Below, piece by piece: positions 25,755 to 51,301 of a stretch of DNA of 64,000 nucleotides. Positions within the stretch are counted from its first letter, which is position 1; each line of letters starts with the position of its first letter. Source of the stretch: a virus. The notes under the pieces are model-generated. The model was not told the origin of the DNA and did not search any database. It worked only from the letters and a program-made list of their open reading frames with translations. The position numbers and the translations under genes are program-made. The DNA is taken from positions 86,643 through 150,642 of IMG/VR virus record IMGVR_UViG_3300049048_000052, one strand, 5' to 3'.

Positions 25755-25924
25755 CCAGTGTAGCTTAAAAGGTAAAGCGTACCCCTCTCAGGGTATACCG
25801 AAAGGGTCCATAGGTAATAGGTGTAGTTGCAAGATTCTGTGAGAGTTATAAACTCCGTATTCGGCAGAGTCCCAGACTGCACAACTATACCTATGGATAT
25901 GAGGGTTCGATCCCCTTCACTGGC
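25754..25924 (+). tRNA. tRNA-like gene (anticodon-arm loop CTCTCA, Glu-like) with about 100-nt insertion after the anticodon arm
   Basis: 5' part 25754..25795: acceptor GCCAGTG, D-arm GCTT/AAAAGGTA/AAGC, stem TACCC/GGGTA. 3' part 25901..25924: T-arm GAGGG/TTCGATC/CCCTT, acceptor CACTGGC pairing 7/7. Confidence 0.35.
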
Positions 25925-26012
25925 GTTGACTAAGATAGAACAATGAGACATAAAGAAATGCCCCTCTATGTAAGACACATAAGAGGGGGTCCAATTAACT
26001 TAGGAGTAAATA

Positions 26013-32528: not shown

Positions 32529-33062
32529 ATGACAAAGCTTTTGGAGGCTGAAGCTCAGAGTATCATAACCTCGGGACATCCTGAGGACTTGAATAAGATG
32601 GCTAATGATCTATTGATCTTAGGTAGTACTCGATTGGAAGCTAGGGTGACAAGCAATCCTGAGCAGGTTAGGTTGAATATGATACTGCTGACCAGACAGT
32701 TAGCTGAGGCTAGAGGACGTAACCTCACAGCCATGGCTGTGTTAGGTCTATTCGCATGTGTAACACTCCTTATCCTAACCCTGATATATCTGGATGTACA
32801 GAAGAGTAGAGAGGACTATGATAGGTCCCTAGGTGCCTATGTGCTGCTTAGTGATGCCAATTGGCTTAAGTGTAAGATCGTGTACGATAGCACCACTAGG
32901 TGCCCCAGGTTACCTGATGAGTACATAGATGGTAGAGAGCCTAAGGTAGAGGACTACTTTGCGGGTTACCCACCTAAGTTAATCCAGGCAAAACAAGAAA
33001 TTGACAGTGCTGGTAAAACAAGGAGAGTTATTGATGAAGCCAGAAGAAGTGGCCGTCCTTGA
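32529..33062 (+). CDS. membrane protein
   Basis: 177 aa with a central TM helix (AVLGLFACVTLLILTLIYL). Confidence 0.4.
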   Translation: MTKLLEAEAQSIITSGHPEDLNKMANDLLILGSTRLEARVTSNPEQVRLNMILLTRQLAEARGRNLTAMAVLGLFACVTLLILTLIYLDVQKSREDYDRSLGAYVLLSDANWLKCKIVYDSTTRCPRLPDEYIDGREPKVEDYFAGYPPKLIQAKQEIDSAGKTRRVIDEARRSGRP

Positions 33063-33439
33063 GAGGGACCTCGCTGACGCCAAGTTACGTGTTAAGGAGA
33101 TAGAGGATAAGTTACAGGCCACTCAGCTTGTAAGGGCCTCTAGCCCAGAGTTTAAAGATAAGATGGTAGGACCTTACAATATAAGTAGGTTCCATCATGT
33201 TCTTGATCTATTGGTTGCAGGTAGGACCTGTGTCTTCCGGCATGAATCCTATGGGGAATATGTTGTATATACCCATAAGGAGACAGGTCATGTTAAGGTA
33301 AGGAAGACGAAGCCAGGTCCTAATGAAGGGATTATGGCTATCCAACCACCCTATCAACAGATCAATGACCAAACTATATTCAGATGTATGGTCCTGTCTG
33401 ATACGGGGGAGTGGTTTGTTTATCCTGAAGAGGATAAAG

Positions 33440-33787
33440 ATGAGAAGCCCTAGAGTAGCGCTCATTATCTTGCTACTAAGTCTAGTAGCAGCACCTGTTT
33501 TGGCAAGGAAACCTAATCCTAAGGGTGCAACCTTCTGTGAACTGGGTAGCGGCTACTGGACTGTAACTATAGTCTCGGGTATCTCTGGAGAGGAGATGTC
33601 AGTAGTTATCTCAGAGTTCCTTGCTAAGGAAGAGCTGATCACTTACTACACTTTTATGGGCCTATGCAATAATAGGACTCCTAGAGAGTTGTGGGTACAG
33701 GGCCTTAATGAGGCCAGTGCTAAGAAGGTCTACAACTTCCTGAGAAGGAGGTATCCCGATAGGGAAGTGTATAACATTAGACCATAA
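33440..33787 (+). CDS. secreted protein
   Basis: Internal ATG giving MRSPRVALIILLLSLVAAPVLA signal peptide; the longer listed ORF overlaps the previous gene. Confidence 0.4.
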   Translation: MRSPRVALIILLLSLVAAPVLARKPNPKGATFCELGSGYWTVTIVSGISGEEMSVVISEFLAKEELITYYTFMGLCNNRTPRELWVQGLNEASAKKVYNFLRRRYPDREVYNIRP

Positions 33788-33847
33788 ATCTTAGGGCGTA
33801 AGCCCTTATTCATTCCTCAGTGGCGCAGTGGATAGCGCACCCGCCTT

Positions 33848-34537
33848 TAGGATAGGAGCACTTCTAGGGGAAACCCTTAAAGTGAATGTGGTTAAATTCA
33901 GGGAAGACTAAGTAGATTATGATCAAACTCCCAATGACAGTTAGGACATAGAGGTACTAAGTTGTCTACAGAGTTAATGTCGTTAACTAAGGTTTCATGT
34001 GGAAAACTAGAGATGGCCTTTCTATGGGCTATTTCAACATGTTTGTTATACCCACAGTTAATACAACAAGACCAGTCGAGTTTTGCTGCTACAGCTCTAG
34101 CCCTTGCTCTAACTAAAGCATAGGCTGAGGACCTGTGATGTTTATTGTACATGGCTTCTTCTAAAGTGACATTTAGATTTAGTCCCTTACGATGAGATCC
34201 AAAGCAGGATTTACAGTAGGTTCTGGAGTTACTTATAGGAGTGGTGCATACCAAGCATTTATTCTCGGGTTTCCTCTTGGGGAAATTACGATTATTATGT
34301 GTAGCAGCACAACTCTTACTACAGAACTTAGGGTTAGTTGTTTCCTTATTACAGTTGAGACAATTCATAGTTTATATGTTAATCCTGAGCCAAGCTATTC
34401 GAAAGCCCTATTATATCATGGGTTCGAATAGAAGGTGCAGAGACTTAACAGCCACCACCTAAGGTCATAAGACTATGGTGAAGATAAAGTCCAGACTACA
34501 AACACTCTTGAGTGGCAGCTAAAGCTGTAGTAGGAGG
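33848..34537 (+). mobile_element. group I-like intron in the tRNA anticodon loop (between nt 34 and 35)
   Basis: TTCAGGGAAGACTAAG (33897..33912) and AAGATAAAGTCCAGACTACAA (34481..34501) resemble the group I R and S (P7) elements; terminal G before the 3' exon; about 210 nt of non-ORF sequence. Confidence 0.55.
33898..34368 (-). CDS. HNH homing endonuclease, encoded antisense inside the tRNA intron
   Basis: 156 aa; CINCGYNKHVEIAH...NLVPLCPNCH is a classic HNH motif, plus N-terminal CxxC pairs. Confidence 0.7.
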   Translation of the reverse strand: MNCLNCNKETTNPKFCSKSCAATHNNRNFPKRKPENKCLVCTTPISNSRTYCKSCFGSHRKGLNLNVTLEEAMYNKHHRSSAYALVRARARAVAAKLDWSCCINCGYNKHVEIAHRKAISSFPHETLVNDINSVDNLVPLCPNCHWEFDHNLLSLP

Positions 34538-34595
34538 CTAAGCGGTCGGTCGCAGGTTCGAATCCTGCCTGGGGAGTTTTAGTTAGGAGAAGATC

Positions 34596-35300
34596 ATGAG
34601 AATCATGACATATAAGGGCAGGCATGATTACTATGATCATGCTATGGCCTATGGTACTGATGAGAAGATTGTCTATGTTAGGCATCCTAAGGAGTTTCAC
34701 TTAGACCAGGTATTCAAGGGACGTGAGATACGTCAATATTATAGAGAGTTAAATCATTGGTTACCTCAGGATATAAGGGCCTCCGTCCTAGGTTTCTGTG
34801 GTACGTTGTACCCTGTCTATAGATACGAGGACACATACGGCATGTCTCCTGAGTACCTACTCGGTAAGCAGAAAGACGATGCTAGAAGAAGGTTAGAGGC
34901 TCTGCTTAATAAGCATGTCCTTTCTCCCTGGAATTATAAAGACGCCCTCCTCAAAGACAGGATGGTCAAAGAGATGATAGGTAAGGAACTGGGAATTGAG
35001 ACCTTTAATAAGTTAAGGTCTCCTTGTTTTCATATGCAGATGGAGTTTGGACGTACTGGTTTTCAGTATACCCTGACCACAAATCCTATACTTGTAGAGT
35101 TAGGGTTCCAGGTTATAGAAGAACCTATGTATTGTTATCAAGAGATCTATATGTTTATAGATAACCTTAATGCAAGTATAGGTCCCGTAGATGAGTCCAC
35201 TAAGTCCGATGATGTGATTGCAAAGTCTAAGGGTCATGATCCTAAGACATCCTTTAGAACTAATAGTCCTGGTAAGAAGGCCAGGAGGAGAAGTAAGTGA
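34596..35300 (+). CDS. hypothetical protein
   Basis: 234-aa ORF with TTAGGAGAAGATC ribosome-binding site. Confidence 0.5.
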   Translation: MRIMTYKGRHDYYDHAMAYGTDEKIVYVRHPKEFHLDQVFKGREIRQYYRELNHWLPQDIRASVLGFCGTLYPVYRYEDTYGMSPEYLLGKQKDDARRRLEALLNKHVLSPWNYKDALLKDRMVKEMIGKELGIETFNKLRSPCFHMQMEFGRTGFQYTLTTNPILVELGFQVIEEPMYCYQEIYMFIDNLNASIGPVDESTKSDDVIAKSKGHDPKTSFRTNSPGKKARRRSK

Positions 35301-35863
35301 GATATAGATTGAATACAGAGGGACCTCAGGGTGCTGCGGCTGCGAAGCTTGTAGCTATAGTCGTAGGATCTATTAGCACCTTTATGCTATTAGTGTCCTT
35401 TGCTTACCTATTATTTGGTACGCCCTCAGGGGCTGCTGTCCTAGGTTGCATACTGGGTCTGTTATTGGGAGCTGGGGGTATTGTCCTCTCGGCCATCGGA
35501 TTCATTATGGGTGCCGTAGCTCAGGATGAAGATTAAGTAGTTATTAGGAGTATAGAGAATGCGTAGACATAGCAATGATGATTTCGATTCCATGTTTAAT
35601 AGCATGGCCGATACCATATCCAAGGCCCAGAGGAGAGCTAAGAGAATCTTCCTCATTCTAGGCCTGATATCGGTAAGTGCCCTGTTAGGCTGCTTTTGGG
35701 CTCTGTTTATGGGTAACCTGAGCATGTCCGCAACTGTGGGGGCCTGTCTAGGCATCCTGATTTCAGCACCATTAAGCTGGGTAAGTCTAGCAACTGTATT
35801 GGCTTCGAGTATTAAGGCATAGTTTGACTAACATGGGTATATAGAAGTATACTCATGTAACAT

Positions 35864-35944
35864 GGGTGGATGACCGAGAGGCCGATGGTGCCTGACTGTA
35901 AATCAGGTCGTAACAGCGCGCTGGTTCGAATCCAGCTCCACCCA
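35864..35944 (+). tRNA. tRNA-Tyr (GUA)
   Basis: Acceptor GGGTGGA/TCCACCC, class II D-arm CCGAGAGGCCGATGG, anticodon stem-loop CCTGA CTGTAAA TCAGG, long variable arm, T-arm GCTGG/TTCGAAT/CCAGC. Confidence 0.7.
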
Positions 35945-35953
35945 TTTCAATAA

Positions 35954-36036
35954 CGGCAGGCTAGGCGAGTTGGTGATCGCTGGGGAGTGTACAACCCTAC
36001 CTTATAGGAACGTTGGTTCGAATCCAACCCTGCTGA
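35954..36036 (+). tRNA. tRNA (long-variable-arm type, anticodon unresolved)
   Basis: Acceptor CGGCAGG/CCTGCTG, T-arm GTTGG/TTCGAAT/CCAAC, D-loop AGTTGGTGAT; anticodon arm could not be folded by hand. Confidence 0.4.
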
Positions 36037-36542
36037 TTCTACATAGTAAACAGGGGAATGTTATGGTGAGTCGTAGTGTCTACAGACTTACATATAGGTG
36101 TAAATGTAAGCACTGTAATAGACCATCGGAATATAAAAGCCATATGATTAGATCTGGCAATAAGAGATGCAGGGCCCTCAATAAGAAGGCCCTTAATAAT
36201 ATTAATATTGATGATGATACATATGATCCTATATTCGTTGATATAGGTTACACCGATTAAGGAGAAACAATATGCCACCAGAAGAGGAAGTTAATGATGA
36301 GGAAGTCACCAATCCAATCGAGGATGAAGTGGAGAGACAGAAGGCCATCTTTGGCTATGCTGATATCGATGAGAAAGCAGAGGAACTTAAAGTCCTCTTT
36401 GGCACTGACAGAGACTCTGCCTAGTATCGCGGTAATCATACTGGCCCTGTTTGCTATAGCGGCTAGTGCGGTGTATGGGATACCAGTATGACTAAATGCG
36501 AGGCGTGTAATGATAGTAAATGGTTGTACAGGAGTGTAAGGA

Positions 36543-36725
36543 ATGAGCAAGGTAATATCATCTGGGAACCAACAGAGTGCTTCTGCGTCCAAGAGGAAGC
36601 AACGGGGAGCCAACCTACTGGTGACGACGATCAGACACAACACCCGTTGTAATTGCGGCAGAGTTGTTAATGTAAGTAGGGAGGTGCTTAACTATAAGTG
36701 CCTTACTTGTTATATAGGTAATTGA
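36543..36725 (+). CDS. small Cys-rich (zinc-ribbon-like) protein
   Basis: 60 aa with CNCG...CLTC and an AGGAGTGTAAGGA ribosome-binding site; an overlapping alternative small ORF 36488..36651 also has a CxxC. Confidence 0.3.
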   Translation: MSKVISSGNQQSASASKRKQRGANLLVTTIRHNTRCNCGRVVNVSREVLNYKCLTCYIGN

Positions 36726-36787
36726 TTATTAGGACTCAGTAGGTAACCGCTTACTGAGTCTATTAACTTATTAGGAAGATACTTATT

Positions 36788-37132
36788 ATGTTGGTTAAGA
36801 TTAATGGGGAAGACCATATTATTGGATTCCACTATGTGAGATGCCCCCTTGGTGAGGCCCCTAAGAATAAACGGGAGGCTGATGTAGAACGGTCATATAT
36901 TATACAGAAGTTCTTTGAAGGTAAACTGCCTCCTTATAATAAGGATATGCACCCCTTCGCATCCATTTGTTATATTAAAAAGCAGGCCACTGGTGAAATG
37001 CTAGCTGCCGCAGTATCCATATGTATTGAAGAGGATAACTTCAGTAGGAAAGTTGGTAGAACTAAGTCTTATAACTCTCTATTAAAGATATTGAATATAG
37101 ATGCTGATAAGCTGGAGATTATTAATAAGTGA
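36788..37132 (+). CDS. hypothetical protein
   Basis: 114-aa ORF. Confidence 0.45.
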   Translation: MLVKINGEDHIIGFHYVRCPLGEAPKNKREADVERSYIIQKFFEGKLPPYNKDMHPFASICYIKKQATGEMLAAAVSICIEEDNFSRKVGRTKSYNSLLKILNIDADKLEIINK

Positions 37133-37659
37133 AGGTAGCCATTGGTACTCAAAGTGGTCCTAAGATAGAGTCTGTACTCAATGGATTTGAAGTACTAGGC
37201 CTAATCGCTATAGATATATATCCTAAGAATTGTATAACGGGAATAGTACAGCCCAAGTCCTTAAGTCAAATGGAGAACTGTGCTATGACAAGAATGGAGC
37301 AGTTGCAGGATGAATTTGGGGACTGTATCTATCATGTGGTAGTTGAGAGTGGCCTTATTCAAAAGAGGGCACCCATAGGTAATACTGAAACTACGCTTTG
37401 TCTCATTAAGCATGTGCCAACAGGTACTCTAGGTTATGGGACTGGGGGTGAATGGAGGGTACCTGAGTACATTATCGATCAGCTAAATGAATGTGGTGAG
37501 ATGGGTAAGACTCAGGTTAAGGGTGCTCAACCCTTAGATAAGCTAGCTATTGGTGGTAGTGTTATTGATGCTATCACAGGTGGGAGATGGAATAGGGTTG
37601 ACCAAATAGAGGTTGCCACTATACATGCCCTTGCTTATTTGTTACATGAAGTAGAATAG
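37129..37659 (+). CDS. hypothetical protein
   Basis: 176-aa ORF overlapping the previous stop; hairpin follows. Confidence 0.45.
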   Translation: MKVAIGTQSGPKIESVLNGFEVLGLIAIDIYPKNCITGIVQPKSLSQMENCAMTRMEQLQDEFGDCIYHVVVESGLIQKRAPIGNTETTLCLIKHVPTGTLGYGTGGEWRVPEYIIDQLNECGEMGKTQVKGAQPLDKLAIGGSVIDAITGGRWNRVDQIEVATIHALAYLLHEVE

Positions 37660-37686
37660 ATCATAGCCCCTTAAGTGGGGCACCAC

Positions 37687-37760
37687 GTCCCTGTGGTCCA
37701 ACTGGTAGAGGTAACGGACTTAAAATCCGTGTGTTGTGGGTTCGAATCCCACCAGGGACA
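37687..37760 (+). tRNA. tRNA (anticodon UAA; Leu by anticodon, but short variable arm)
   Basis: Acceptor GTCCCTG/CAGGGAC 7/7, anticodon stem-loop ACGGA CTTAAAA TCCGT, T-arm GTGGG/TTCGAAT/CCCAC. Confidence 0.6.
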
Positions 37761-37763
37761 TTT

Positions 37764-37837
37764 GCCGCAGTAGCCCAATTGGGTAGAGGCTGTAGGTTGA
37801 GGGCTTACATGTTACAGGTTCAAATCCTGTCTGCGGT
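37764..37837 (+). tRNA. tRNA (anticodon GAG?)
   Basis: Acceptor GCCGCAG/CTGCGGT, loop TTGAGGG between GTAGG and CTTAC, T-arm ACAGG/TTCAAAT/CCTGT. Confidence 0.55.
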
Positions 37838-37859
37838 ATTATCACTATAAAGGATATGT

Positions 37860-39884
37860 ATGTTTGAGCAATTAAGATCGGCCGTTAAGGCTCGTTTTGC
37901 TTCCCTCGTTGTAGGGAATGGTGAGAATATGTTTGTCCTGGATATCTCTAGGGATGATCTATGGAACACTTATATAACTGGATATCCAGAGGGCGCTGAA
38001 AGACAAGAGAACAACTGCAACGCCTGTAGATCTTTCATTAAGAATTATGGAGGTCTTGTATGGGTAGACCCCAACACCTATGAGCTCCATAATATCTGGC
38101 AGCTAGAAGGACCCATGGCTGACTATGGCCCAGTTAAGGCTCTGAGAGAATTGGTAGAACTAGCTACTATTCGGGATGCGTTCATTAACGATACCCGTAA
38201 GTTAGGTGTTGACTATAACTTCGCCGCTGAGAGTATGACCAAGTGGACACATCTCTTCTATGAGATGCCTAGGTCATTTCCTACGCAGGTACGTAGTGAA
38301 GTGCCTACCCTGCTTAATGATATTAGGACTGGTGCTAAGGCGTTTGAAAGGGCTCTAATTGAGCTAACTACAGACAGTGTAGAGACAGTCCTAGAACTCA
38401 TAGAGACTAACTCAATCTATCGAGGTGCTGAAAGTAAGGGGGTCCTTCAATCCTTCTTAACCCTAAAGCAGACCTATGATGCCTTACCAGATTACTCTAG
38501 GAAGCAAGCCTTCGCTTGGCTTACCTCTAGGAGGAATCCTGGTATAAGCCGTATCAAGAATACGGCTATCGGTACTCTGCTGGAGGATATATCTGGGGGC
38601 ATGGAGCTAACCCCTGCTGTTCACAGATTTGTGGATAAAATGGATCCCAATAAGTACCAGAGACGTACTGCTGTAGTATCCTCTGGTATGATCAAGCAGG
38701 CAGAGCAGAAAGTCCTAGAGTTAGGTCTGGATACAGCCTTAGCTAGACGACACTCGACCCTGGATGACCTGCGTATTGAGGATGTCCTCTATGTTAATAG
38801 AGATGCTGTCAAGGGAGCCCAGTCTCTCTTTGGTGAGATCATGGGAGAGGTAGAGACTAAGGTTGATCCCAAGAAGTTTGAGGACCTCAAGGATGTTACA
38901 GTAGATACGTTCCTAGAGAGTGTACTACCCGGTGCATCTAAGGTAGAGGTTCTCTTTGAGGGTAGACACTTCTCTAACCTGGTCAGCTTGACTACCGCAG
39001 TTAACCCTGATGCCAAGTATCTCTTCAAATGGGATAACCATCACTCCTGGTGTTACAATGGGGCCCTTGCGGACTCAAGTACTAAGGCTTTGGTTAAGGC
39101 GGCAGGTGGTCAAGTAGAGGGTATACTTCGGTGTTCTCTAGGTTGGGGCAATGGAGATGATCTAGACTTGCATCTTGAGGAACCTAACGGTTTCCATATT
39201 TACTTTGGATCTAAGAAATCTCCAACTGGAGGGGCCCTAGATGTAGATATGAATGCTGGCGGTATTGACAATAGTACCAACCCAGTAGAGAACATTATCT
39301 ACCCCTATGGTAGTAACATGAGGGAAGGGGTGTATAAGGTCTGGGTAAATAACTACTCTAAGAGATCCAACGATGGCTCTGGCTTTGAGGTAGAGATGGA
39401 GTTTGGGGGACGCATCCTGAAGTTTGTCCATCCTAAACCACTGACTAATCACTCTAGTTACACTGTAGCCACCTTCAGCTACAGCAAGACAAAAGGTATC
39501 GAGCTAATCTCAGGTACTCCAGACAGCACAGGCAGCCTAAGTAAGGAGATATGGGGTATCCAAACAGATACCTTCCATCCCGTGCAGGCTGTAACCCTAT
39601 CCCCCAACTATTGGGGAGATAAGCAAATAGGTAACAAACACATGTTCCTATTCATCGAGGCCTGTAAGAATGATGGCATCGTCCGAGGACTCTTTAATGA
39701 GTTCCTACGTCAGGAATTGGCCCCGCATAGGACCGCCTTTGAGTTATTAGGAGCCAAACTTCAGGTAGCCCAGAGTGATGGTCCTCAATTAAGCGGACTT
39801 GGCTTCTCATCCACTCAGGCTGCAGACTTTGTAGTCAGAGTGACCGGGAAGACGGTTCGTATGTTACGTGTGAAGACTTTGTAG
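37860..39884 (+). CDS. large hypothetical protein (674 aa)
   Basis: Longest ORF of the central region; no recognisable catalytic motif. Confidence 0.6.
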   Translation: MFEQLRSAVKARFASLVVGNGENMFVLDISRDDLWNTYITGYPEGAERQENNCNACRSFIKNYGGLVWVDPNTYELHNIWQLEGPMADYGPVKALRELVELATIRDAFINDTRKLGVDYNFAAESMTKWTHLFYEMPRSFPTQVRSEVPTLLNDIRTGAKAFERALIELTTDSVETVLELIETNSIYRGAESKGVLQSFLTLKQTYDALPDYSRKQAFAWLTSRRNPGISRIKNTAIGTLLEDISGGMELTPAVHRFVDKMDPNKYQRRTAVVSSGMIKQAEQKVLELGLDTALARRHSTLDDLRIEDVLYVNRDAVKGAQSLFGEIMGEVETKVDPKKFEDLKDVTVDTFLESVLPGASKVEVLFEGRHFSNLVSLTTAVNPDAKYLFKWDNHHSWCYNGALADSSTKALVKAAGGQVEGILRCSLGWGNGDDLDLHLEEPNGFHIYFGSKKSPTGGALDVDMNAGGIDNSTNPVENIIYPYGSNMREGVYKVWVNNYSKRSNDGSGFEVEMEFGGRILKFVHPKPLTNHSSYTVATFSYSKTKGIELISGTPDSTGSLSKEIWGIQTDTFHPVQAVTLSPNYWGDKQIGNKHMFLFIEACKNDGIVRGLFNEFLRQELAPHRTAFELLGAKLQVAQSDGPQLSGLGFSSTQAADFVVRVTGKTVRMLRVKTL

Positions 39885-39900
39885 TTGTAAGGAAAGACTA

Positions 39901-40290
39901 ATGCAAGACATGATGTATAAGAAGGCTGTTCGCATGAAGCTGCGTTTCCAGGCAGCTAAAGGGCAGATTACAATGGAGGACCTATATGGTCTTTCCTTGG
40001 AAGTCCTAAATGGCATGGCCAATGAGGTGAACGAACGCCTCAACAAGAATGCCGTCAGCTTCATCCCTGATGCCACCGTCAACAAGGGTAACGAAGAGGA
40101 TACACTAAGACTGGAGATCCTCAAGGATGTAATCCTGACTAAATATCAGGAGCAACAGGCCCGAGCCAATGCTGCAGAGTTAGCCCGTAGGAAACAAGAC
40201 CTTATGGATGCTTTCCATCAAGTGCAGCAGAAAGATCTCTTGAGTAAGACCCCTCAAGAGATTGAGGCAATGATTGCAGCCTTAGGATAG
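39901..40290 (+). CDS. hypothetical coiled-coil protein
   Basis: 129 aa, charged and helical; terminator hairpin follows. Confidence 0.45.
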   Translation: MQDMMYKKAVRMKLRFQAAKGQITMEDLYGLSLEVLNGMANEVNERLNKNAVSFIPDATVNKGNEEDTLRLEILKDVILTKYQEQQARANAAELARRKQDLMDAFHQVQQKDLLSKTPQEIEAMIAALG

Positions 40291-40364
40291 TCGATAACCT
40301 AGAGGGGGTAGTAATACCCCCTCAACGTCAAGGCTTAGTTACAATAGTTAGTTAGGAGATAACT

Positions 40365-40763
40365 ATGAGGAAGGCTAAAGCGACCAGGATAGGTTCTACG
40401 AAGAGTAGAATCTCAGTTAGTAGGAATGGTTTGTGGGAGGCTCAGGGGGCTATTGTAGCCTTAGCTGGGACTTTAGCCACAGATCCTTTCGTTATGGCTA
40501 ATCTACTTAGCATAAGGAAGAGATTACCACGGGCCCCTATTGCTCATACCTTAGAGGCATGTCAAAAGATCAGTGCTTCTCTAAGAGGAACCGCAATCTA
40601 CTTAAGACACGACACAACCAACGAGTTAGTAAAGGTGGTAAATGCCGCTCAGTTCTGCAGAGAACGAGGGCTACATAGCAATGGTAATGGTATAAGCATG
40701 ATGCTAAGAGGTAGCGTCAGGAGTTACCATGGGTGGCGGCTGGTAGGACAGAACGATTTATAG
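40365..40763 (+). CDS. hypothetical protein
   Basis: 132-aa ORF. Confidence 0.45.
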   Translation: MRKAKATRIGSTKSRISVSRNGLWEAQGAIVALAGTLATDPFVMANLLSIRKRLPRAPIAHTLEACQKISASLRGTAIYLRHDTTNELVKVVNAAQFCRERGLHSNGNGISMMLRGSVRSYHGWRLVGQNDL

Positions 40764-41150
40764 ATAAGATACAATAGGCCCTTGATCTTTATCTTGGGCC
40801 TTATAGAGGACAATAACTATGGCAAACGATTGGGATACTTTGGATAAAGGAATCGACGCCCTAGACCAAATTGTGACTAAGTGTGAGGAAGCTAAGTTTA
40901 ATTACTTCCATGGTGATAGTGATATTCATGATTTTGAGGGTGGTAGGCTAGTAGGTGCCTTTGAGTTAGCCCGTGAGATTATACATATAATAAGGAGCAT
41001 TAGGGATGACGGATCAGGAGAAACTGAAAGTAATTAAGGATATGTGTAATGGTGCCCTGAAGGAGACTTATGAGTCCTGGGATACAACTTGGGATTGCGG
41101 TTTCATATCAGGTAAAAAGGATTTATCAGAGAGTATATTGAAGGTCTTAG

Positions 41151-41750
41151 GTGATGGTTAAGAAAGTAAAAACTAGGTGTAAGAGAATCCTAGAAACGTA
41201 CGGGAGAAGATATAGCAATATAGTAGATAAGATGTCTGCTGCCCTAAGTTGTGAAGTATATAAGCTTTGTACCGATTGGAAGATTAACTTCAAACCACAG
41301 GTATTGTGGGGCCTTGGATTTACATGCGCCTATTCCTATAGAGGTAAAGAGATCCACTACAACATGGGAGTCAGCTTTGATAAAACCATCGAGGTTATGG
41401 ACCTAGACCTTTACAAAGCTATGGATACCTATGTAGGTCTAAAGTCACATACGCCCATTGGTAACCTAGTAAAGGACTGGGACTGTTCCTTACTTTATGA
41501 AGAAGAGGCTACCCTTATTAAGATTGGGACTGGCTTTAAGGATGACCCAAAAGGGAAAGAGTTAAGCCTGGTGGCTTGCAATGAGGACCTAATATTTGAA
41601 AGAGGTTTCAGTTATGTAGGTCCTGTATATAAGGATAGAGCGTTAGAAGTGGCTGAGGTTTACCAGAACAATCCTGAGCAAGGTAAATGGGCAGTAACAG
41701 GTCTAGGTTATTTTGGGCCTAATGAATTAGAGAAGCTAACTAAATCCTAG
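41151..41750 (+). CDS. hypothetical protein
   Basis: 199-aa ORF. Confidence 0.5.
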   Translation: MMVKKVKTRCKRILETYGRRYSNIVDKMSAALSCEVYKLCTDWKINFKPQVLWGLGFTCAYSYRGKEIHYNMGVSFDKTIEVMDLDLYKAMDTYVGLKSHTPIGNLVKDWDCSLLYEEEATLIKIGTGFKDDPKGKELSLVACNEDLIFERGFSYVGPVYKDRALEVAEVYQNNPEQGKWAVTGLGYFGPNELEKLTKS

Positions 41751-41776
41751 GATCTATGGTATACTCCATATACCAA

Positions 41777-41849
41777 CGGGGTGTAAGTCACCGGTAGACG
41801 TTCTGATTTGGGGTCAGAAAGAAGTTAGTTCGATTCTAACCATCCCGAC
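41777..41849 (+). tRNA. tRNA-Pro (UGG)
   Basis: Acceptor CGGGGTG/CATCCCG, anticodon stem-loop TCTGA TTTGGGG TCAGA, T-arm GTTAG/TTCGATT/CTAAC. Confidence 0.7.
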
Positions 41850-42178
41850 TTTACCTACAAATAGTCCATGGGTTACCCTCTATAATCACCAGTATTATAG
41901 AGAGGTACTGCTATGAGCTATGAGAGTCCTAATGATCTTATTGTGGGATTCTATGTCAATAGGATCTTAGAGTTAGCTGAGACAGACCCTGAGCTAGAGG
42001 AAACATTTGACTATATAGAGGAGAACCTTAGCGATGCTACTGAAGAGATCATAGCTGAGGTTACCATCAAGGTAGGTAGAAGATTAAAGGATAAACATAA
42101 GGGTAAGTACATATTGTTCTTAGTCTATATGTATGGACCTGATACTGAAGATATATTACAGATAGATAGGAAGATCAT

Positions 42179-42733
42179 ATGTTAATAGAGAGGCTCCTAA
42201 TGGAGGGGGCGGATGTATCTATATATTACATAGATAACCTTGATACGGCAATGTTAATGGATGAGTTAACAAAAGCTGTAGAATGGGATACTATGGGTGG
42301 TACTAGAAGGAAGATGGCATGGTTTGGAAGGGGAGAGTATACCTATCGGGATAGACTTCATAAACCTCAGGATATGCCATTGGTCGTTAAGATAGCTAAG
42401 GCACCAGTAGAACGAGTGACTGGCCACACCTACAATGGTTGTCTAGCTAATTGTTATGAGAATGGGAGGATAGGGGTTAACTGGCATTCAGATGATGAGT
42501 CTATACCAGGTTCACCTATAGCCATACTATCTCTAGGTGCAACCCGTACCTTTAGGATGATGCATAAAGTATTAGGTATCAGCAGGGAGTGGAGACTGGC
42601 AGCAGGTACTGTACTTGTCATGTCTGGTCCTACTCAAGAGAACTGGATGCATTGCATTCCTAAAGAGGGAGAAGTTAAAGAGGCTCGTATCAGTCTTACA
42701 TACAGACAAACTAAGTTGACCTCCGTAGATTGA
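42179..42733 (+). CDS. AlkB-like 2OG-Fe(II) dioxygenase (nucleic-acid demethylase family)
   Basis: NWHSDDE (HxD), SLGATRTF, WMHCIP (distal His) and RISLTYRQ (RxSxTxR) match the AlkB signature in order and spacing. Confidence 0.7.
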   Translation: MLIERLLMEGADVSIYYIDNLDTAMLMDELTKAVEWDTMGGTRRKMAWFGRGEYTYRDRLHKPQDMPLVVKIAKAPVERVTGHTYNGCLANCYENGRIGVNWHSDDESIPGSPIAILSLGATRTFRMMHKVLGISREWRLAAGTVLVMSGPTQENWMHCIPKEGEVKEARISLTYRQTKLTSVD

Positions 42734-42775
42734 GGGGTTATGCTTAGAGTATATAGTTAGTAATCTTATACTCTA

Positions 42776-43189
42776 ATGCATAGCAAGTCGAAGGGTAACA
42801 TAGGGCAGTTTTATGCTGCTGCTAAATTGGCCGAGTTAGAGTTCGCCGTATTCACTGAGGAGGGAGATAACTCCAAGGTGGATATAATAGGGGTTAAGGA
42901 TAATATAATACTTAGGTTTCAGGTAAAAGCTGTAACTCCTAAGAATAATACATTAGCTTTAATGCTGAAGAAATCTGGTCCTAATTATAAGTTTAAGTAT
43001 AAAGAGGAGATGTTTGACTACTTTATAGTAGTTGACCTTATTAGCTTTAAAGTATATGCTGTAAGTTCGGAGGTACTAAGAACCCATCAAGATACTTTTA
43101 CTATAAGATTAGTAGCAGCGAAAAACAAGCAGAGTTGTAATACGAATGAGGCAGACGATTACCTCATGGAGAAAGTTTTGGGTCATTAA
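42776..43189 (+). CDS. hypothetical protein (possible PD-(D/E)xK nuclease fold)
   Basis: 137 aa; SKVDIIGVKD...RFQVK spacing resembles a D...(D/E)xK core; weak. Confidence 0.35.
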   Translation: MHSKSKGNIGQFYAAAKLAELEFAVFTEEGDNSKVDIIGVKDNIILRFQVKAVTPKNNTLALMLKKSGPNYKFKYKEEMFDYFIVVDLISFKVYAVSSEVLRTHQDTFTIRLVAAKNKQSCNTNEADDYLMEKVLGH

Positions 43190-43252
43190 CTTAGCGGCTA
43201 AAGTACCTAGCTTTTAACTAGGGAACCGAAGGTTCGAGTCCTTCATGACCCA
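43180..43252 (+). tRNA. tRNA-Lys (UUU)
   Basis: Acceptor GGGTCAT/ATGACCC 7/7, D-arm ACTT/AGCGGCTA/AAGT, anticodon stem-loop CCTAG CTTTTAA CTAGG, T-arm GAAGG/TTCGAGT/CCTTC; its 5' end overlaps the stop of the preceding CDS. Confidence 0.7.
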
Positions 43253-43311
43253 CTGGTTCTATAAAATAGAACTGGTTGAGGGGGAGTGGTGTAATGGTAG
43301 CCACGCAGGTC

Positions 43312-43857
43312 TTAACTCATTGGAGTTAGTTGGTGTATTAGTTTATAAGCGTTCTTAACTAGATCTCTAGAGAGCATCTTACCACCAGATATCAATTTTA
43401 TAATTGGGTTCTTGCGTGAGTGGTCTAACTGAAATCTAGCTTGAGGATATAAGTCCAGGAAGGATGTGGCAGTATCTTTATTAGAGGCAGCTATTTCTAT
43501 CCTATAAGTCTTAACTTTATAGACTTGTACTAAAAGTTGCTTTATCAGATCTATTAAAGTAGGATCCTGGTTGCAGAAGTAAACATGATTTGTTTTATCT
43601 GTATGCCAGCCCTCACATAAATAGGCCGTATGGGCAGCAATGGAAAGAGGTGTTAGGAGTAAATCATCTGTAGGGGAGATATAGTTCTTCCTAGCTAGAA
43701 AGTTATACTCTGAGGCAGATCTCATTGGTATATGGTACTTCCTTAAGTAAGACCTAATAGTCTTATGGTTACAGGCTAGTAACTGACCTATCTGATAGGG
43801 ATTAAGTTCCTGAGTCAGGTATAGATCCTCAAGTACCTCTTTATTAATTAACTTCAT
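43312..43857 (-). CDS. intron-encoded protein, antisense (HTH plus LAGLIDADG-like, putative homing endonuclease)
   Basis: 181 aa inside the second tRNA intron; N-terminal helix-turn-helix-like segment and AYLCEGWHTDK, loosely resembling a single LAGLIDADG motif. Confidence 0.5.
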   Translation of the reverse strand: MKLINKEVLEDLYLTQELNPYQIGQLLACNHKTIRSYLRKYHIPMRSASEYNFLARKNYISPTDDLLLTPLSIAAHTAYLCEGWHTDKTNHVYFCNQDPTLIDLIKQLLVQVYKVKTYRIEIAASNKDTATSFLDLYPQARFQLDHSRKNPIIKLISGGKMLSRDLVKNAYKLIHQLTPMS

Positions 43858-44111
43858 AATCCTGAGCCTTCATGTAGAAATACATGTTGTGAACGAAGCT
43901 ATATGCGGGAAACGCTTAAAGCCTACAACACTATATGTCTACCAAGATATAAGTAACAGTTTGTAGGATGTAACAATAGCCAATCCGCAGGGAAGATACC
44001 TAGGTATCCCCTCAGAGACTAAACGCTTTGCACCTTAACGTAGAGACGAAGGTGATGATATAGTCCAGACTACAACAGCTTACGCTGGCCTATGAAAGTA
44101 GGAGTAGTAAG
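43314..44111 (+). mobile_element. group I-like intron in the tRNA-Leu anticodon loop (between nt 34 and 35)
   Basis: TCAGAGACTAAACGC (44012..44026) resembles R; GATGATATAGTCCAGACTACAACAGC (44054..44079) resembles S; terminal G; near-identical S region to the first intron. Confidence 0.55.
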
Positions 44112-44266
44112 AGGAACCTGTGCCGCAAGGCGTGAGAGTTCGAATCTCTCCTCCCCCATTTACAGTAGTGAGCACACGGTATGATGTAGGGTTCCCCCTA
44201 CTTGTACTAAGGCTAATACCTTTGCTATATTCACTACTGTAAACATATTGATTGTTTCTAATAATT

Positions 44267-44683
44267 ATGGAAACACAAATGGCATTATTTGGTTTTGGTG
44301 GTTCTAACTCTGCTATCGATGAGTTAAGCCGTGTCTTAGGTGCAAGTAGCTCTATTGCTAGCCAACAGAGTCCCCCGTATGAAATTGGGATCTCTGATCG
44401 TAAACTAGTAGTTAAGTTCATAGTACCTGGTATCGATAAGGATACTGTTGATGTGACCATCCATGATAAGTACGTAGAGCTATATGGCATGCGTAAGAAG
44501 GATGATAAGTTAGCAGTTGAACTGAGTGAGTTCTATTACGGTAAGGTTTATCGTACAGCCCCACTAAGTCAGAGAGTAGACAGAAACTCTGCCTCTGTAT
44601 CTTACTCAGATGGTATTCTGACTCTCTCTATGGATCTATTACCAGTTAATCCTCCCACTGCGGTTAGGGTTAAATTAGGTTAA
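44267..44683 (+). CDS. Hsp20/alpha-crystallin family small heat-shock protein
   Basis: Alpha-crystallin-domain-like blocks (KFIVPGIDKDTVDVTIHDKYVELYG..., SVSYSDGILTLSM); ATG at 44267 preferred over the listed TTG. Confidence 0.55.
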   Translation: METQMALFGFGGSNSAIDELSRVLGASSSIASQQSPPYEIGISDRKLVVKFIVPGIDKDTVDVTIHDKYVELYGMRKKDDKLAVELSEFYYGKVYRTAPLSQRVDRNSASVSYSDGILTLSMDLLPVNPPTAVRVKLG

Positions 44684-44705
44684 ACATTATAGGAGTTATT
44701 GATCT

Positions 44706-45218
44706 ATGCAGTTAAACATTATGAGTGGTTCTACGGGGGATCCACCTTGGAGAACAGATGATGTGGGTAGGCGTATCCCAGACCGAACTGGGACAACTAA
44801 GGGTGGTTATATACCGGACTATCCTGGTATCGGTTTCCCTAAGCCTCCTAATACTTTCTATCACCTAATTAACTCAACCTATAAGGCACCTGCTGATATA
44901 CCATGTGATGCTAATAGTGTTGGCACTCAGTTCATCGCTGTGTTCAACTTGGGTGGTGTAAGGAAGGAGGATATTGATATCACTGTCCATCCTGACAGAG
45001 TAGAGATATCTGCTACTAGAAGTCTCAGCGGCCCTAAGTCGTTGAGTCTTTATAGTAGTGAAGTCTCCTGCGGTAAGCTAAGGCGCACCATCCCATTTGA
45101 GGATACTAAGGTCAACATCGAGACAGCTAAGGCTGACTATGATAATGGACTGGTAACTCTCACAATGGACCTGCTTCAACCTAAGCCGCCACCGGCCGTC
45201 AAGGTAGAAATCAAATAA
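44706..45218 (+). CDS. Hsp20/alpha-crystallin family protein (second copy)
   Basis: FIAVFNLGGVRKEDIDITVHPDRVEIS...DYDNGLVTLTM parallels the previous gene. Confidence 0.5.
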   Translation: MQLNIMSGSTGDPPWRTDDVGRRIPDRTGTTKGGYIPDYPGIGFPKPPNTFYHLINSTYKAPADIPCDANSVGTQFIAVFNLGGVRKEDIDITVHPDRVEISATRSLSGPKSLSLYSSEVSCGKLRRTIPFEDTKVNIETAKADYDNGLVTLTMDLLQPKPPPAVKVEIK

Positions 45219-45280
45219 GAAGGATACCTTCCTTACTGTATAACTGCTATAGTTATCATTAGTAAGGAAGGTATTAACTT
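45219..45280 (+). terminator. long stem-loop (terminator or RNA structure)
   Basis: ATACCTTCCTTACT ... AGTAAGGAAGGTAT, a 14-bp stem enclosing a 24-nt loop with its own mini-hairpin. Confidence 0.4.
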
Positions 45281-45282
45281 AT

Positions 45283-45630
45283 ATGGAAATGGATATATTT
45301 AGCCCCTCAAGACTCGTCTGTATTCACTATGGAAATAATGCTATAGATGAGATAATGGATGGTAGAGCTGAGGAAGCCCTAGATAAACTAGAGAAGGCTC
45401 GTGAGGATGATATGTTCGATATGGAGCATTATCAATCTATACTGCTCTATGTGGGTGCATGCCTTAAACAAGAGAGCATGGGCCATTATATACAATTCCT
45501 ATTGACTATCTTTGATGAAGATGATATTACTAGTATTAACACCGCAGATTCTAAGGTCAATGGTGTCCTAGCGGAAGCGGCAGCAATCCATAGCGGGGAT
45601 GGAGCAACGGGAGGCTCGATGGTCTCATAA
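45283..45630 (+). CDS. hypothetical protein
   Basis: 115 aa, preceded by a 14-bp-stem hairpin. Confidence 0.4.
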   Translation: MEMDIFSPSRLVCIHYGNNAIDEIMDGRAEEALDKLEKAREDDMFDMEHYQSILLYVGACLKQESMGHYIQFLLTIFDEDDITSINTADSKVNGVLAEAAAIHSGDGATGGSMVS

Positions 45631-45666
45631 GCCATACATCGCTGAGTTCAATTCTCAGCCCCGACA
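45593..45666 (+). tRNA. tRNA-like (anticodon CAU) with imperfect acceptor stem
   Basis: D-arm GAGC/AACGGGAG/GCTC, anticodon stem-loop ATGGT CTCATAA GCCAT, T-arm CTGAG/TTCAATT/CTCAG. The acceptor pairs only 5/7 and the loop overlaps the TAA stop of CDS 45283..45630. Confidence 0.35.
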
Positions 45667-45898
45667 TTGTCAGTTTACCTGTCCTGACGTTGTGAAAAGA
45701 TAGGTGTAGGTCATAGGCCTAACTAGCAAGAATTGAGTTCGAATCTCAACAGGTCCATTTCGAGGGCCTGACTTGGTAATCGATTGTTAGCATGAGGAAC
45801 TATGACTGAAGGTGTGTACAACCAAAGTACAGAACAACAAGTGCAACCAATAACATTGTACCCTTCTCAAGGGTAAGTTCTATAGTAGTGTAATCTAC

Positions 45899-46663
45899 TC
45901 AGGCGTTTAGTATACTAAACGCCTGCTCTTTTTTACGCATACAGTAGGGACCACCTAAGTTATATAACCTAAATATAAAAGTCTTAAGGATTTTACCTTG
46001 AAAGGAGAAACCGTACTGATTATTCCAGTTGGGATTCTTACTTTGCAAGTCCCTCATATGTACATTAAGGGATATATCTAGTAGTTTGTTGAGCCTAGAG
46101 GCTAGAGTATACATAAAAGACTTTGAGCATCCATAGGCTGTAAGTCTACGGGAGGACCAACACCCGTCAGAGTCTAGATATCCTCTAATGAAATCTAACT
46201 CGTAGACGCTGTCTATAAGAGGCTCAGGGTAAATCATAGTCTTGGACTTATTACTTTCTAACTTTAGGATAGTAGTTAGATCTCTATGTAGACTAGTGGA
46301 ACATATAGCGAGCTGAAGACAGTTAGAAGCTATATTCCTTATTTTATAATCGGTATTGAGGTTAGATTGTATCTGTTCTAGAATATCCCTGTCCGAGGTA
46401 GTAAATACTATCTGACATCCATTTCTATGTAAGTGACCATCCCCATACAATACACCTAACATCCAAGCTTTAAAGGTGTCCATAGGGAACAATTTATAGT
46501 TCTTAAGCTTAGATAATGGCTTATAGGACATTGCCCCGGAGCTCTGCAGGACTTTGTATATACAATAAGAGGATAGCCCTAATTTAGAACTAATATTTGT
46601 AACAGACTGACCCTCCTTATACATAGTTATAATAGGCGTTGGGTTAATATGAGTAGATTTCAT
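45899..46663 (-). CDS. LAGLIDADG homing endonuclease (two-motif type)
   Basis: WMLGVLYGDGHL and FIRGYLDSDGCW are the two LAGLIDADG motifs; N-terminal HTH-like segment. Confidence 0.7.
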   Translation of the reverse strand: MKSTHINPTPIITMYKEGQSVTNISSKLGLSSYCIYKVLQSSGAMSYKPLSKLKNYKLFPMDTFKAWMLGVLYGDGHLHRNGCQIVFTTSDRDILEQIQSNLNTDYKIRNIASNCLQLAICSTSLHRDLTTILKLESNKSKTMIYPEPLIDSVYELDFIRGYLDSDGCWSSRRLTAYGCSKSFMYTLASRLNKLLDISLNVHMRDLQSKNPNWNNQYGFSFQGKILKTFIFRLYNLGGPYCMRKKEQAFSILNA

Positions 46664-49950: not shown

Positions 49951-50196
49951 GGAGGAAAAGGATGATGCGGTTGTGTTGAGTATGGGGGATGTCACCTTTG
50001 TTCTCTTTAAGAATGCTAATGGAGAGGTAGTTGCCCTTCCAGTAGATGAGGATGATGAAGATGACATGCCCTTTGGGATTCAGATGCCCCAATGAACCTT
50101 GTAACGAATGGACCGACTGTGACTATAAGGATAGATTAATATATCTACCTGAGAAGCATGAGGACCCTAATGATTGGCAGGATGCCAGTTAAGCCT

Positions 50197-50276
50197 CCCC
50201 GCTACGTCCTAAGGTAGGACACCTGCCTTCTAAGCAGGCGCCTTGAGCATAACAGGTTCGATTCCTGTAGCGGGGG
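50197..50276 (+). tRNA. tRNA (anticodon UCU) with 13-nt variable arm
   Basis: Acceptor CCCCGCT/AGCGGGG 7/7, D-arm GTCC/TAAGGTA/GGAC, anticodon stem-loop CCTGC CTTCTAA GCAGG, variable arm CGCCTTGAGCATA, T-arm ACAGG/TTCGATT/CCTGT. Confidence 0.55.
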
Positions 50277-51301
50277 TTAATACATTTGGAGAAGAGTATG
50301 TCGGAAGTCTGGTTGGCTATAGGTATTACTATGTGGTTATGTGTAGGTATAGGAGCTATGTTCCTTAACCTCTTTAAGATTAGTATAAAAGAGTTTATGG
50401 GAGTGAAGACTGATGCGGTCCATCTTACGTTAATGTCTTTATCTATCATTGCTCTGGGCCCAATAGGTCTAGCCATTGTTATTTGGGGGTAATATGAAGG
50501 ATCCAAAACAGAATCCTGGTCAGGCCGCTGCTGCGGTCGCTATTGTTGTAGGCTTGATTGCAGGGGGCGCAGTTATAAGGGACGAGATCGTTAGGAACGT
50601 CAATACTCAGGAGCAAAAGCATGACCGATAAGAAAGAAGAGAAGGATACTGGTAAAGGTTCAAGTAATAAACCGATAACTAAGGAAAGCGATAAACCAAA
50701 CGGCGGATCACAATATATCGGCGGTATACCTGGCCTGGGGGATAAATGAAGTTAGTGTCTATTTGTCTAGGGTTCCTAGCAGTAGTTACGGGACTGTGTT
50801 TTATATCTATTCAATCCAACCTACCCTGCGATTCGTGGGTGATGGGGATGGCTATGACTTACCTATTATCATTGGGAGGTATATCCTTCCTCTTATACAC
50901 TGTTTGATTAATGAAGGGGCCTCAATTAAGGGGCCCATAAAAGGAGAAAGATGATTGGAACAATGTGGAGAAATAGAGTCAGTGGTATACCCCATTGGGT
51001 GGTAGGTCATATGATTATAAATCCTATAAGATTAGATACCCACACTAATACTCACGGTACGTGGATCATATTAGAACATAGGGCAAGTGGACCTAAGGAA
51101 CTATATGTTTCTGAGCATGAGCTATCTGAGCTCTATAATATGGAAGGCAATATATGATAATGGAATTCTGGATGCAGCCTGTTATACAGGAGTTTGCTAC
51201 TGTAATATTGCTTTCTATCGTGGCCCCTATATTGATATCATTGCTATTCTATTGGTTGTATAAGGATTAATTGATTGGTTACTTAGTAAGGAATCAATAT
51301 A

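Follow-up and report, generated by a model that had tools for sequence, protein, structure and literature searches.

The 64,000-nucleotide stretch of viral DNA analysed here (positions 86,643 to 150,642 of IMG/VR virus record IMGVR_UViG_3300049048_000052, hereafter the window) belongs to a large uncultured phage (~250 kb) and contains two group I introns, both located in tRNA genes and both carrying a predicted endonuclease gene on the strand opposite to the tRNA. We favour, with a probability of about 80%, a reading where the two are independent members of the bacterial and phage family of group I introns in tRNA anticodon loops (IC3-like), each with its own antisense homing-endonuclease gene. 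An earlier note on this DNA had proposed instead that a single intron lineage spread between both tRNA genes of this genome and was invaded by endonuclease genes afterwards. That proposal does not agree with the trees or with the alignment scores, which place introns of other genomes closer to each of the two than they are to each other.

Two group I introns in phage tRNA genes

The general group I model of Rfam (RF00028, Intron_gpI) matches the window twice, at 33837-34513 with 54.1 bits and at 43845-44086 with 66.8 bits, in both cases above the gathering score of 50. A default ARAGORN scan of the window called neither of the interrupted tRNAs. In-silico excision of 33848-34537 leaves a canonical class I tRNA-Arg(UCU) with a short variable loop (ARAGORN tRNA-Arg(tct)), and excision of 43314-44111 leaves a class II tRNA-Leu(UAG) with a long variable arm (ARAGORN tRNA-Leu(tag)). 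Both 5' junctions are directly 3' of U34 (C32-U33-U34, CUU|), both introns end in G, and the guide sequence GAG is found in each (33856-33858 in intron 1, 43864-43866 in intron 2); ARAGORN on the spliced genes thus confirms the insertion after U34 that had been read from the anticodon loops by eye. The rule of a preceding U and a terminal G also admits, for intron 1, a junction that lies one base further upstream and results in the anticodon GCU. This alternative was rejected because the class I body with its short variable loop is not that of a bacterial tRNA-Ser, and because the pairing of GAG with C-U-U requires U34 at position -1, as the last base of the exon.

The region lacks an annotated close relative among GenBank phages, as a megablast search of 33000-45500 against these gave zero matches. 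The features of both loci are listed here in window coordinates.

33814..33847, plus strand, 5' exon of tRNA-Arg(UCU): acceptor, D arm, 5' strand of the anticodon stem, C32-U33-U34 (ARAGORN on the in-silico splice)
33848..34537, plus strand, group I intron 1, 690 nt (Rfam 54.1 bits, sequence reading)
33859-33884, plus strand, intron 1 P2 with GAAA loop
33887-33893, plus strand, intron 1 P3 5'
33897-33903, plus strand, intron 1 P4 5', UUCAGGG (Rfam alignment)
33898..34368, minus strand, ORF1, 156-aa HNH endonuclease in the P5 loop of intron 1 (Pfam HNH_2, PHROG 1271)
33906-33912, plus strand, intron 1 P5 5', GACUAAG (Rfam alignment)
34373-34380, plus strand, intron 1 P5 3', UAUAUGUU (Rfam alignment)
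34383-34388, plus strand, intron 1 P4 3', UCCUGA (Rfam alignment)
from 34389, plus strand, intron 1 P6
34437-34449, plus strand, intron 1 R/P7 5', GCAGAGACTTAAC (GCAGAGACUUAAC), downstream of ORF1 (Rfam alignment)
34480-34492, plus strand, intron 1 S/P7 3', GAAGAUAAAGUCC
34488-34501, plus strand, intron 1 family motif
34537, plus strand, intron 1 terminal G
34538..34576, plus strand, 3' exon of tRNA-Arg(UCU): C35-U36-A37-A38 to the discriminator base
43280..43313, plus strand, 5' exon of tRNA-Leu(UAG) (ARAGORN on the in-silico splice)
43312..43857, minus strand, ORF2, 181 aa, N-terminal helix-turn-helix and a single predicted LAGLIDADG-fold domain, in the P1 loop of intron 2
43314..44111, plus strand, group I intron 2, 798 nt (Rfam 66.8 bits, 43845-44086)
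43314-~43860, plus strand, intron 2 P1 loop, housing ORF2
43871-43886, plus strand, intron 2 P2 with GAAA loop, followed by P3, P4, P5, P5a and P6
44012-44022, plus strand, intron 2 R/P7 5', followed by P8
44055-44066, plus strand, intron 2 S/P7 3'
44062-44075, plus strand, intron 2 family motif
downstream of the motif, plus strand, intron 2 P9 hairpin with GAAA loop
44111, plus strand, intron 2 terminal G
44112..44158, plus strand, 3' exon of tRNA-Leu(UAG): A35-G36-G37-A38 to the discriminator base

Both introns possess a complete P1-P9 core, so their similarity is not confined to the S stretch. In intron 1, where the core helices are those of the Rfam alignment, the open reading frame (ORF) occupies an insertion of ~470 nt in the terminal loop of P5, and its final ~5 codons and stop codon overlap P4 5' and P5 5'. 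The earlier note had placed this gene downstream of an R-like element, TCAG.GACTAA, that it saw in both introns. Only intron 2 has that string in R (44012-44022); the corresponding sequence of intron 1, TCAGGGAAGACTAA at 33898-33911, is P4 5'/J4-5/P5 5' in the Rfam alignment, and the HNH gene therefore lies upstream of the true R. The placement of ORF2 between the 5' splice site and R was right and can be narrowed down further: the Rfam match starts only past ORF2 and the GAG lies 7 nt beyond its start codon, so that ORF2 takes up the whole loop of P1 that separates the splice site from the guide, with its TAA stop codon extending into U33-U34 of the tRNA-Leu exon. That both genes are antisense to the tRNAs, unrelated to each other, and located at different sites (P5 loop and P1 loop) is likewise borne out; nearly all long ORFs of the window are on the plus strand.

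Covariation supports the core of the intron 2 clade. Seven cores were aligned, with the P1 loop replaced by GAAA, and scored against an explicit P1-P9 model that included the P3/P7 pseudoknot. Under this model 95.7% of cells are paired, as compared to 32–43% when the partners are slid by 1–3 columns, compensatory changes occur at 30 of 60 pairs, and the observed values were reached by none of 500 shuffles. All seven members retain the P1 pairing, which in contig L127 has undergone a single compensatory change (CUU/GAG to UUU/GAA), while P7 of L126 shows two compensated pairs, its S element being GTTCC. Both introns fit the compact IC3 architecture as read from alignments rather than from subgroup models: P2 is present, P2.1, P7.1 and P7.2 are missing, P3 3' leads straight into P8, and the insertion is in the anticodon loop. 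The P4/P6 sequences of intron 2 depart from the classical IC3 pattern.

A 12-mer, TAATCCTGAGCC, is found beside both ORF start codons (34380-34391 and 43858-43869) and was considered as a shared promoter or ribosome-binding module. This was rejected because it belongs to J5/4-P4 3'-P6 in intron 1 and to the guide-sequence region in intron 2, and because its distance to the ATG is 15 nt in one case and 3 nt in the other. Its recurrence is probably a coincidence of two conserved elements at non-homologous structural positions.

A shared motif and the relationship of the two introns

The introns share a 14-mer, AGTCCAGACTACAA, which occurs exactly twice in the window (34488-34501 and 44062-44075), so that the match is not due to chance. 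It is part of a longer stretch with 19 of 21 positions identical, AAGATAAAGTCCAGACTACAA at 34481-34501 and ATGATATAGTCCAGACTACAA at 44055-44075. The near-identity that had been reported thus stands, while the coordinates given for the second copy were 2 nt off, and the AAGATA reported there reads ATGATA. In both introns CAGACUACAA comes next after S, then a P9 hairpin, and GUAGUAxG precedes the 3' splice site. The motif consists of S/P7 3' and one strand of a conserved ACUAC/GUAGU helix that shows covariation.

It is extremely unlikely that this resemblance merely mirrors the universal group I consensus (P, Q, R and S), without any specific relationship between the introns. While AAGAUAUAGUC and CAGAGACUA do belong to the general consensus of Rfam Intron_gpI, the match runs past that consensus into CAGACUACAA and extends to the P9 hairpin and the GUAGUAxG, a module common to a defined set of tRNA introns and including the covarying helix. 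The two introns also agree in their compact P1-P9 architecture and their insertion site.

The motif is not private to the window, as it is found in at least 120 loci of IMG/VR, where ~84 of the 120 matches listed are real introns (R upstream, GUAGUAxG before the 3' exon), and 63 of the 120 matches listed for GTDB species genomes are real tRNA introns. The latter introns come from Clostridia, Bacilli, Bacteroidota, candidate phyla radiation bacteria, Acidobacteriota and others. According to ARAGORN with introns allowed, the viral introns reside mostly in tRNA anticodon loops, chiefly of tRNA-Leu(UAA), and also of tRNAs for Arg, Ile, Lys, Asn, Thr and Ala. A few are found in protein-coding genes, such as the capsid gene of Pelagibacter phage HTVC120P. 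Rfam at its gathering threshold missed the related introns in L001-L005, which were recognised by sequence reading. The shared stretch is the signature of a large family of tRNA introns with hundreds of viral and cellular members, and the occurrence of the S-region sequence elsewhere, which the earlier note had suggested be searched for, means that it need not mark a local duplication.

Three observations concern other members of, or sequences resembling, this family. An apparent intron in L007 interrupts a tRNA with the anticodon UCA, a possible opal suppressor. On the huge-phage contig LR756508 (L003), a HEARO RNA (2123-2347, Rfam RF02033, 144 bits) is located ~0.5 kb downstream of an intron-containing tRNA-Lys. 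The window itself has a tRNA-like gene of 172 nt (25754-25925, plus strand, Rfam tRNA 38.7 bits) with an insertion of ~100 nt at the position of the variable arm, not the anticodon loop, that contains the S-motif-like sequence GCAGAGTCCCAGACTGCACAA.

To place the window introns within the family, 44 introns were compared after removal of their ORFs over 200 well-occupied MAFFT columns. Introns 1 and 2 are 56% identical, the family median being 57%. Alignment of the ORF-less cores thus gives a mixed answer to the idea that they are homologous: the local score of 47 is far above that of shuffled sequences (17.5 +/- 2.2) and the shared 3' domain extends beyond S, but the two are no closer to each other than any average pair of the family. 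Against intron 1, 95 of 147 foreign introns score higher than intron 2 does; against intron 2, 32 of 147 score higher than intron 1, one of these (L327) being the window's own phage from another sample. The nearest relatives of intron 1 are ORF-less tRNA-Leu(UAA) introns (67–70%), and its best local-alignment match overall is in L270, a cellular metagenome-assembled genome (Bacilli). Those of intron 2 are other tRNA-Leu(UAG) introns (66–73%), with which it forms a clade in 197 of 200 bootstraps; a position of intron 1 directly beside this clade was obtained in none of the 200. The P4-P6 and J6/7 sequences, UCAGGG...CCUGAGCCAAGC...GGUGCAGAGACUU in intron 1 and GCGGG...CCGCAGGGAAG...CCCCUCAGAGACUA in intron 2, also assign them to different clades. 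Judged by these alignments, the window introns are members of the same family and not close relatives of each other.

This bears directly on the scenario of spread within the genome, where one intron would have been copied between the tRNA genes by reverse splicing or ectopic homing at CUU|, followed by local invasions of an HNH and a LAGLIDADG gene. Such a course of events would account for the identical site after U34 of CUU, the same GAG guide, the 14-nt exact and 19/21 extended match, the score well above shuffles, and the different endonuclease families and insertion sites. The motif and the insertion site are, however, common to the whole family, the identity is at the family median, and closer foreign introns exist for both. 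Together with the bootstraps, the clade-specific P4-P6 and J6/7 sequences and the presence of both intron-ORF composites on other contigs, these comparisons already largely refute the scenario, and we consider it very improbable.

The endonuclease genes and their distribution

ORF1, which the earlier note had called an HNH endonuclease, is indeed one. Tested against Pfam PF13391 and PF01844, it matches HNH_2 with 28.9 bits (cut-off 21, E = 1e-6), and it matches PHROG 1271 'HNH endonuclease' at 8.5e-12. It has 591 homologues at E<=0.001, mostly aligned across 95–99% of the ORF. ORF2, with 35 homologues, is less readily classified. Its N-terminal 50 residues form a helix-turn-helix, the only type of match in a profile search of PDB sequences; Pfam assigns no family to it, and a LAGLIDADG profile matched neither ORF2 nor its 35 relatives. 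A single further domain is predicted to have the alpha-beta-beta-alpha-beta-beta-alpha fold of LAGLIDADG proteins, visible at the level of structure only, so that "LAGLIDADG-like", as the protein had been described, holds for the predicted fold and not for the sequence family. Within the ORF2 family, E82-G83 (in AYLCEGWH), which closes helix 70-82, the equivalent of the LAGLIDADG motif helix, is invariant, as are N96, D98 and R148, while K149 is nearly so. By its position at the helix end, E82 may be the counterpart of the catalytic Asp/Glu of LAGLIDADG enzymes and is a candidate for this role.

Intron 2 together with its ORF recurs on six other contigs (L126, L127, L203-L206) in the same tRNA-Leu(UAG), at the same position and in the same antisense orientation. 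Including the window's own, there are seven such contigs of ~56–260 kb, with ORF2-family members always antisense in the P1 loop; the guide sequence is of the TGAGC type, as in intron 2, in L126 and L203-L206, and TGAAC in L127. In our sample this clade was found only on viral or phage-like contigs. A free-standing relative on L129/L202 is antisense to a tRNA gene whose 3' end it overlaps, and several proteins of the family end in peptides like GFEP, which is the antisense reading of a tRNA T-arm.

The HNH family shows a different distribution, as 66 of 67 viral relatives are free-standing, mostly within tRNA clusters. The sole intron-borne one, in L175 (44% identity), resembles ORF1 in being antisense and in the P5 loop of a tRNA-Arg(UCU) intron. 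For 19 of the 67, in either orientation, the nearest tRNA within 200 nt on one side is tRNA-Arg(UCU). Four more free-standing relatives were seen on contigs L131-L134 (from NCBI, JGI and Logan), on the strand opposite to the neighbouring genes. In L132-L134 these adjoin unusual tRNA-Arg(UCU)-like genes with a CTTCTAA loop and an atypical D-arm and variable region.

About two dozen introns of the family bear ORFs, mostly sense-oriented, at two or more sites (~35–80 nt or ~160–170 nt into the intron). Apart from the window introns, antisense ORFs were found only in L029, L126, L127 and L175 of the IMG/VR sample; the antisense state is therefore a minority in the family and is stable in the Leu(UAG) clade. 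Empty sites are common: 103 of the 120 viral matches listed for the Arg(UCU) exon junction and anticodon arm of intron 1 itself are intron-less tRNA genes, as are 112 of the 120 viral matches listed for the Leu(UAG) junction, the latter being that of L203-L206 and not the window's own. Intron-bearing alleles are rare by comparison. Rare intron-bearing alleles, common empty sites, and endonucleases both inside and outside of introns are the pattern expected of homing elements. As the composites exist on other contigs, their associations predate the window genome. Separate acquisition of the endonucleases, as the earlier note had it, fits the ORF-less introns and the free-standing relatives of both enzymes, but not its location within this genome.

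Independent membership in the family suggests the following course of events. The plus-strand tRNA cluster would be transcribed into precursors, in which C32-U33-U34 would pair with the intron guide GAG to form P1. Free guanosine would attack after U34, the terminal G would set the 3' splice site, and exon ligation would produce tRNA-Arg(UCU) and tRNA-Leu(UAG). Being placed in peripheral loops (P5 and P1), the endonuclease genes would leave the core undisturbed, and they are presumably transcribed from the minus strand. Their products would cut the intron-less cognate tRNA genes of co-infecting relatives, and repair would copy the intron into these (homing). The composites would have arisen elsewhere, probably through insertion of a free-standing tRNA-cluster endonuclease into an intron that was already in place, and each would have reached the window genome separately, by homing or by recombination.

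Several points weigh against this reading. The RNAs in the trees are short and divergent and were aligned with MAFFT and filtered by occupancy, which is weaker than an alignment from the family's own covariance model, and the family sample was drawn with the exact 14-mer and is thus a biased subset. The L175 intron, expected as the sister of intron 1, does not group robustly with it (27 of 200 bootstraps), so that these two Arg(UCU) introns with HNH genes need not share an origin. Sigma-70 promoter scans upstream of either ORF did not exceed the shuffled background, and terminator scans around both were at background level, results that are uninformative on antisense expression. Finally, an uninterrupted tRNA-Arg(UCU) paralogue persists in the same genome, and the HNH enzyme, if active, does not convert it. 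This second gene (50196-50277, plus strand, 82 nt) is a possible in-genome target that is still intron-less; its anticodon arm reads CCTGC-CTTCTAA-GCAGG as compared to CCCGC-CTTCTAA-GCGGT in the interrupted gene.

The surviving paralogue and the failure of the scans to find a promoter-like site, along with the lack of a canonical LAGLIDADG sequence motif or Pfam match in ORF2, could also be explained if the introns splice while their ORFs are homing endonucleases no longer, being either decaying passengers or proteins domesticated for another role, for example as a splicing maturase or as a regulator that binds DNA (helix-turn-helix and LAGLIDADG fold are combined in ORF2 as in WhiA). We regard this as unlikely. 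Both ORFs are intact and of full length relative to many homologues at 40–60% identity, which indicates purifying selection; the ORF2 family has retained the invariant residues named above, with K149 nearly so; the HNH motif is above the Pfam cut-off; and the patchy distribution, with few intron-bearing and many intron-less alleles and with free-standing as well as intron-borne copies, fits active mobility.

Comparison with known introns and implications

The closest known systems are the classical IC3 introns of cellular tRNA genes (cyanobacterial and plastid tRNA-Leu(UAA), Azoarcus tRNA-Ile(CAU), Agrobacterium tRNA-Arg(CCU), cyanobacterial tRNA-fMet). They share with the window introns the insertion in the anticodon loop, which in tRNA-Leu(UAA) is at the same CUU|AA site, a small core with P2, a direct P3-P8 connection and tetraloop/receptor-type elements, and the 14-mer itself was found in cellular tRNA introns. 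The P4-P6-P7 sequence of intron 1 (UCAGGG...AAUCCUGAGCCAAGC...GAAGGUGCAGAGACU) is presumably close to that of the Anabaena and Azoarcus introns. Unlike the classical group, the window introns reside in phage-encoded tRNA-Arg(UCU) and tRNA-Leu(UAG), both carry endonuclease genes in antisense orientation, and the clade of intron 2 has a distinct P4-P6 sequence.

Bacterial tRNA group I introns are known from 21 tRNA/site types (Williams 2020, bioRxiv 10.1101/2020.01.27.920355), and 12 of the 333 tRNA introns in complete bacterial genomes encode an endonuclease of the HNH, PD-(D/E)XK or LAGLIDADG type (PMC13011429). One of the known examples is the Synechocystis tRNA-fMet intron with I-Ssp6803I, a PD-(D/E)XK enzyme (PMC13011429, PMC3984707), from which the window introns differ by their HNH and helix-turn-helix/LAGLIDADG-fold ORFs, the antisense orientation and the phage host.

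For phages, every known intron interrupted a protein-coding gene according to a review of 2014, although phages have many tRNA genes (PMC3984707). The T4 introns in td, nrdB and sunY, with I-TevI, II and III, are, like those of the window, group I introns of phage origin that house endonuclease genes in their peripheral loops, and T4 SegB is, like the relatives of the window endonucleases, free-standing in a tRNA cluster, where it promotes inheritance of its neighbourhood (PMC2988022, PMC2330249). The T4 and window families have in common a proposed route from free-standing to intron-borne endonuclease; the T4 introns differ in being of type IA2, in protein-coding genes and with sense-oriented ORFs. 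Introns in phage-encoded tRNA genes have been described for Lak megaphages (Devoto et al. 2019) as unprecedented and 'enigmatic'; that report does not appear to assign them to group I or to discuss endonuclease genes, which the window introns carry (PMC6784885). The Lak-C1 intron (L002) is a member of the same motif family and, from its 3' exon AAAATCC, most likely interrupts a tRNA-Leu(UAA); the automatic ARAGORN call at this locus differed from that and failed the check for U at -1 and a terminal G.

The antisense arrangement has a counterpart in nuclear rDNA introns, where endonuclease genes opposite to the ribozyme strand are known and insertions occur in P1, P2, P6, P8 and P9. Didymium iridis Dir.S956-2 and others resemble the window introns in having such a gene in a peripheral helix (PMC3679873). 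They differ in being of type IC1/IE in eukaryotic nucleolar rRNA, with His-Cys box enzymes and eukaryotic features of mRNA expression. Taken together, the phage tRNA hosts, the antisense genes and the Pfam-invisible family with helix-turn-helix and LAGLIDADG fold make the window introns modestly unusual.

Our results leave the general understanding of group I introns unchanged. They add phage-encoded tRNA-Arg(UCU) and tRNA-Leu(UAG) to the hosts of endonuclease-bearing group I introns, and they correct a reading that arises in scans of sequence alone, as a striking S-region motif shared by two introns can mark a very large intron family and not a local duplication. Each of the two endonuclease families occurs within tRNA clusters in an intron-borne as well as a free-standing form, which is the intermediate expected in the formation of mobile introns. 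The ORF2 family, with the anticodon region of tRNA-Leu(UAG) as its presumable target, is a candidate for a new rare-cutting enzyme.

A further-reaching proposal, which we consider improbable, is that large phages have, in their tRNA clusters, a major reservoir of mobile tRNA group I introns that has gone all but undescribed, and that the antisense arrangement, which all seven tRNA-Leu(UAG) introns have preserved along with the new family of predicted helix-turn-helix/LAGLIDADG-fold proteins, is functional and not incidental. If this were true, transcription of the endonuclease gene could, for example, yield a transcript that is antisense to the pre-tRNA at its P1 loop and 5' splice site, and endonuclease expression would be coupled to the control of tRNA maturation during infection.

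Two further endonuclease genes are found in the vicinity of intron 2. One is a third antisense gene (45899-46663, minus strand, 254 aa, Pfam LAGLIDADG_3 2.9e-8), located just downstream of a tRNA-Met and overlapping the 3' end of a permuted tmRNA-like gene (45591-45984, plus strand), for which ARAGORN reports 'tmRNA*' at 45668-45984. At 45684-45920 the Rfam models cyano_tmRNA and tmRNA_permuted score 43 bits (gathering 70) and 45 bits (gathering 47), and no group I signature was found at this locus. The other (42776-43189, plus strand) belongs to the I-Ssp6803I family (Pfam PDDEXK_5, 1.9e-10) and, unlike the enzyme of the Synechocystis intron, is free-standing and not intron-borne. Its 3' end overlaps the start of an uninterrupted tRNA-Lys(UUU) (43180-43253), immediately upstream of the interrupted tRNA-Leu.

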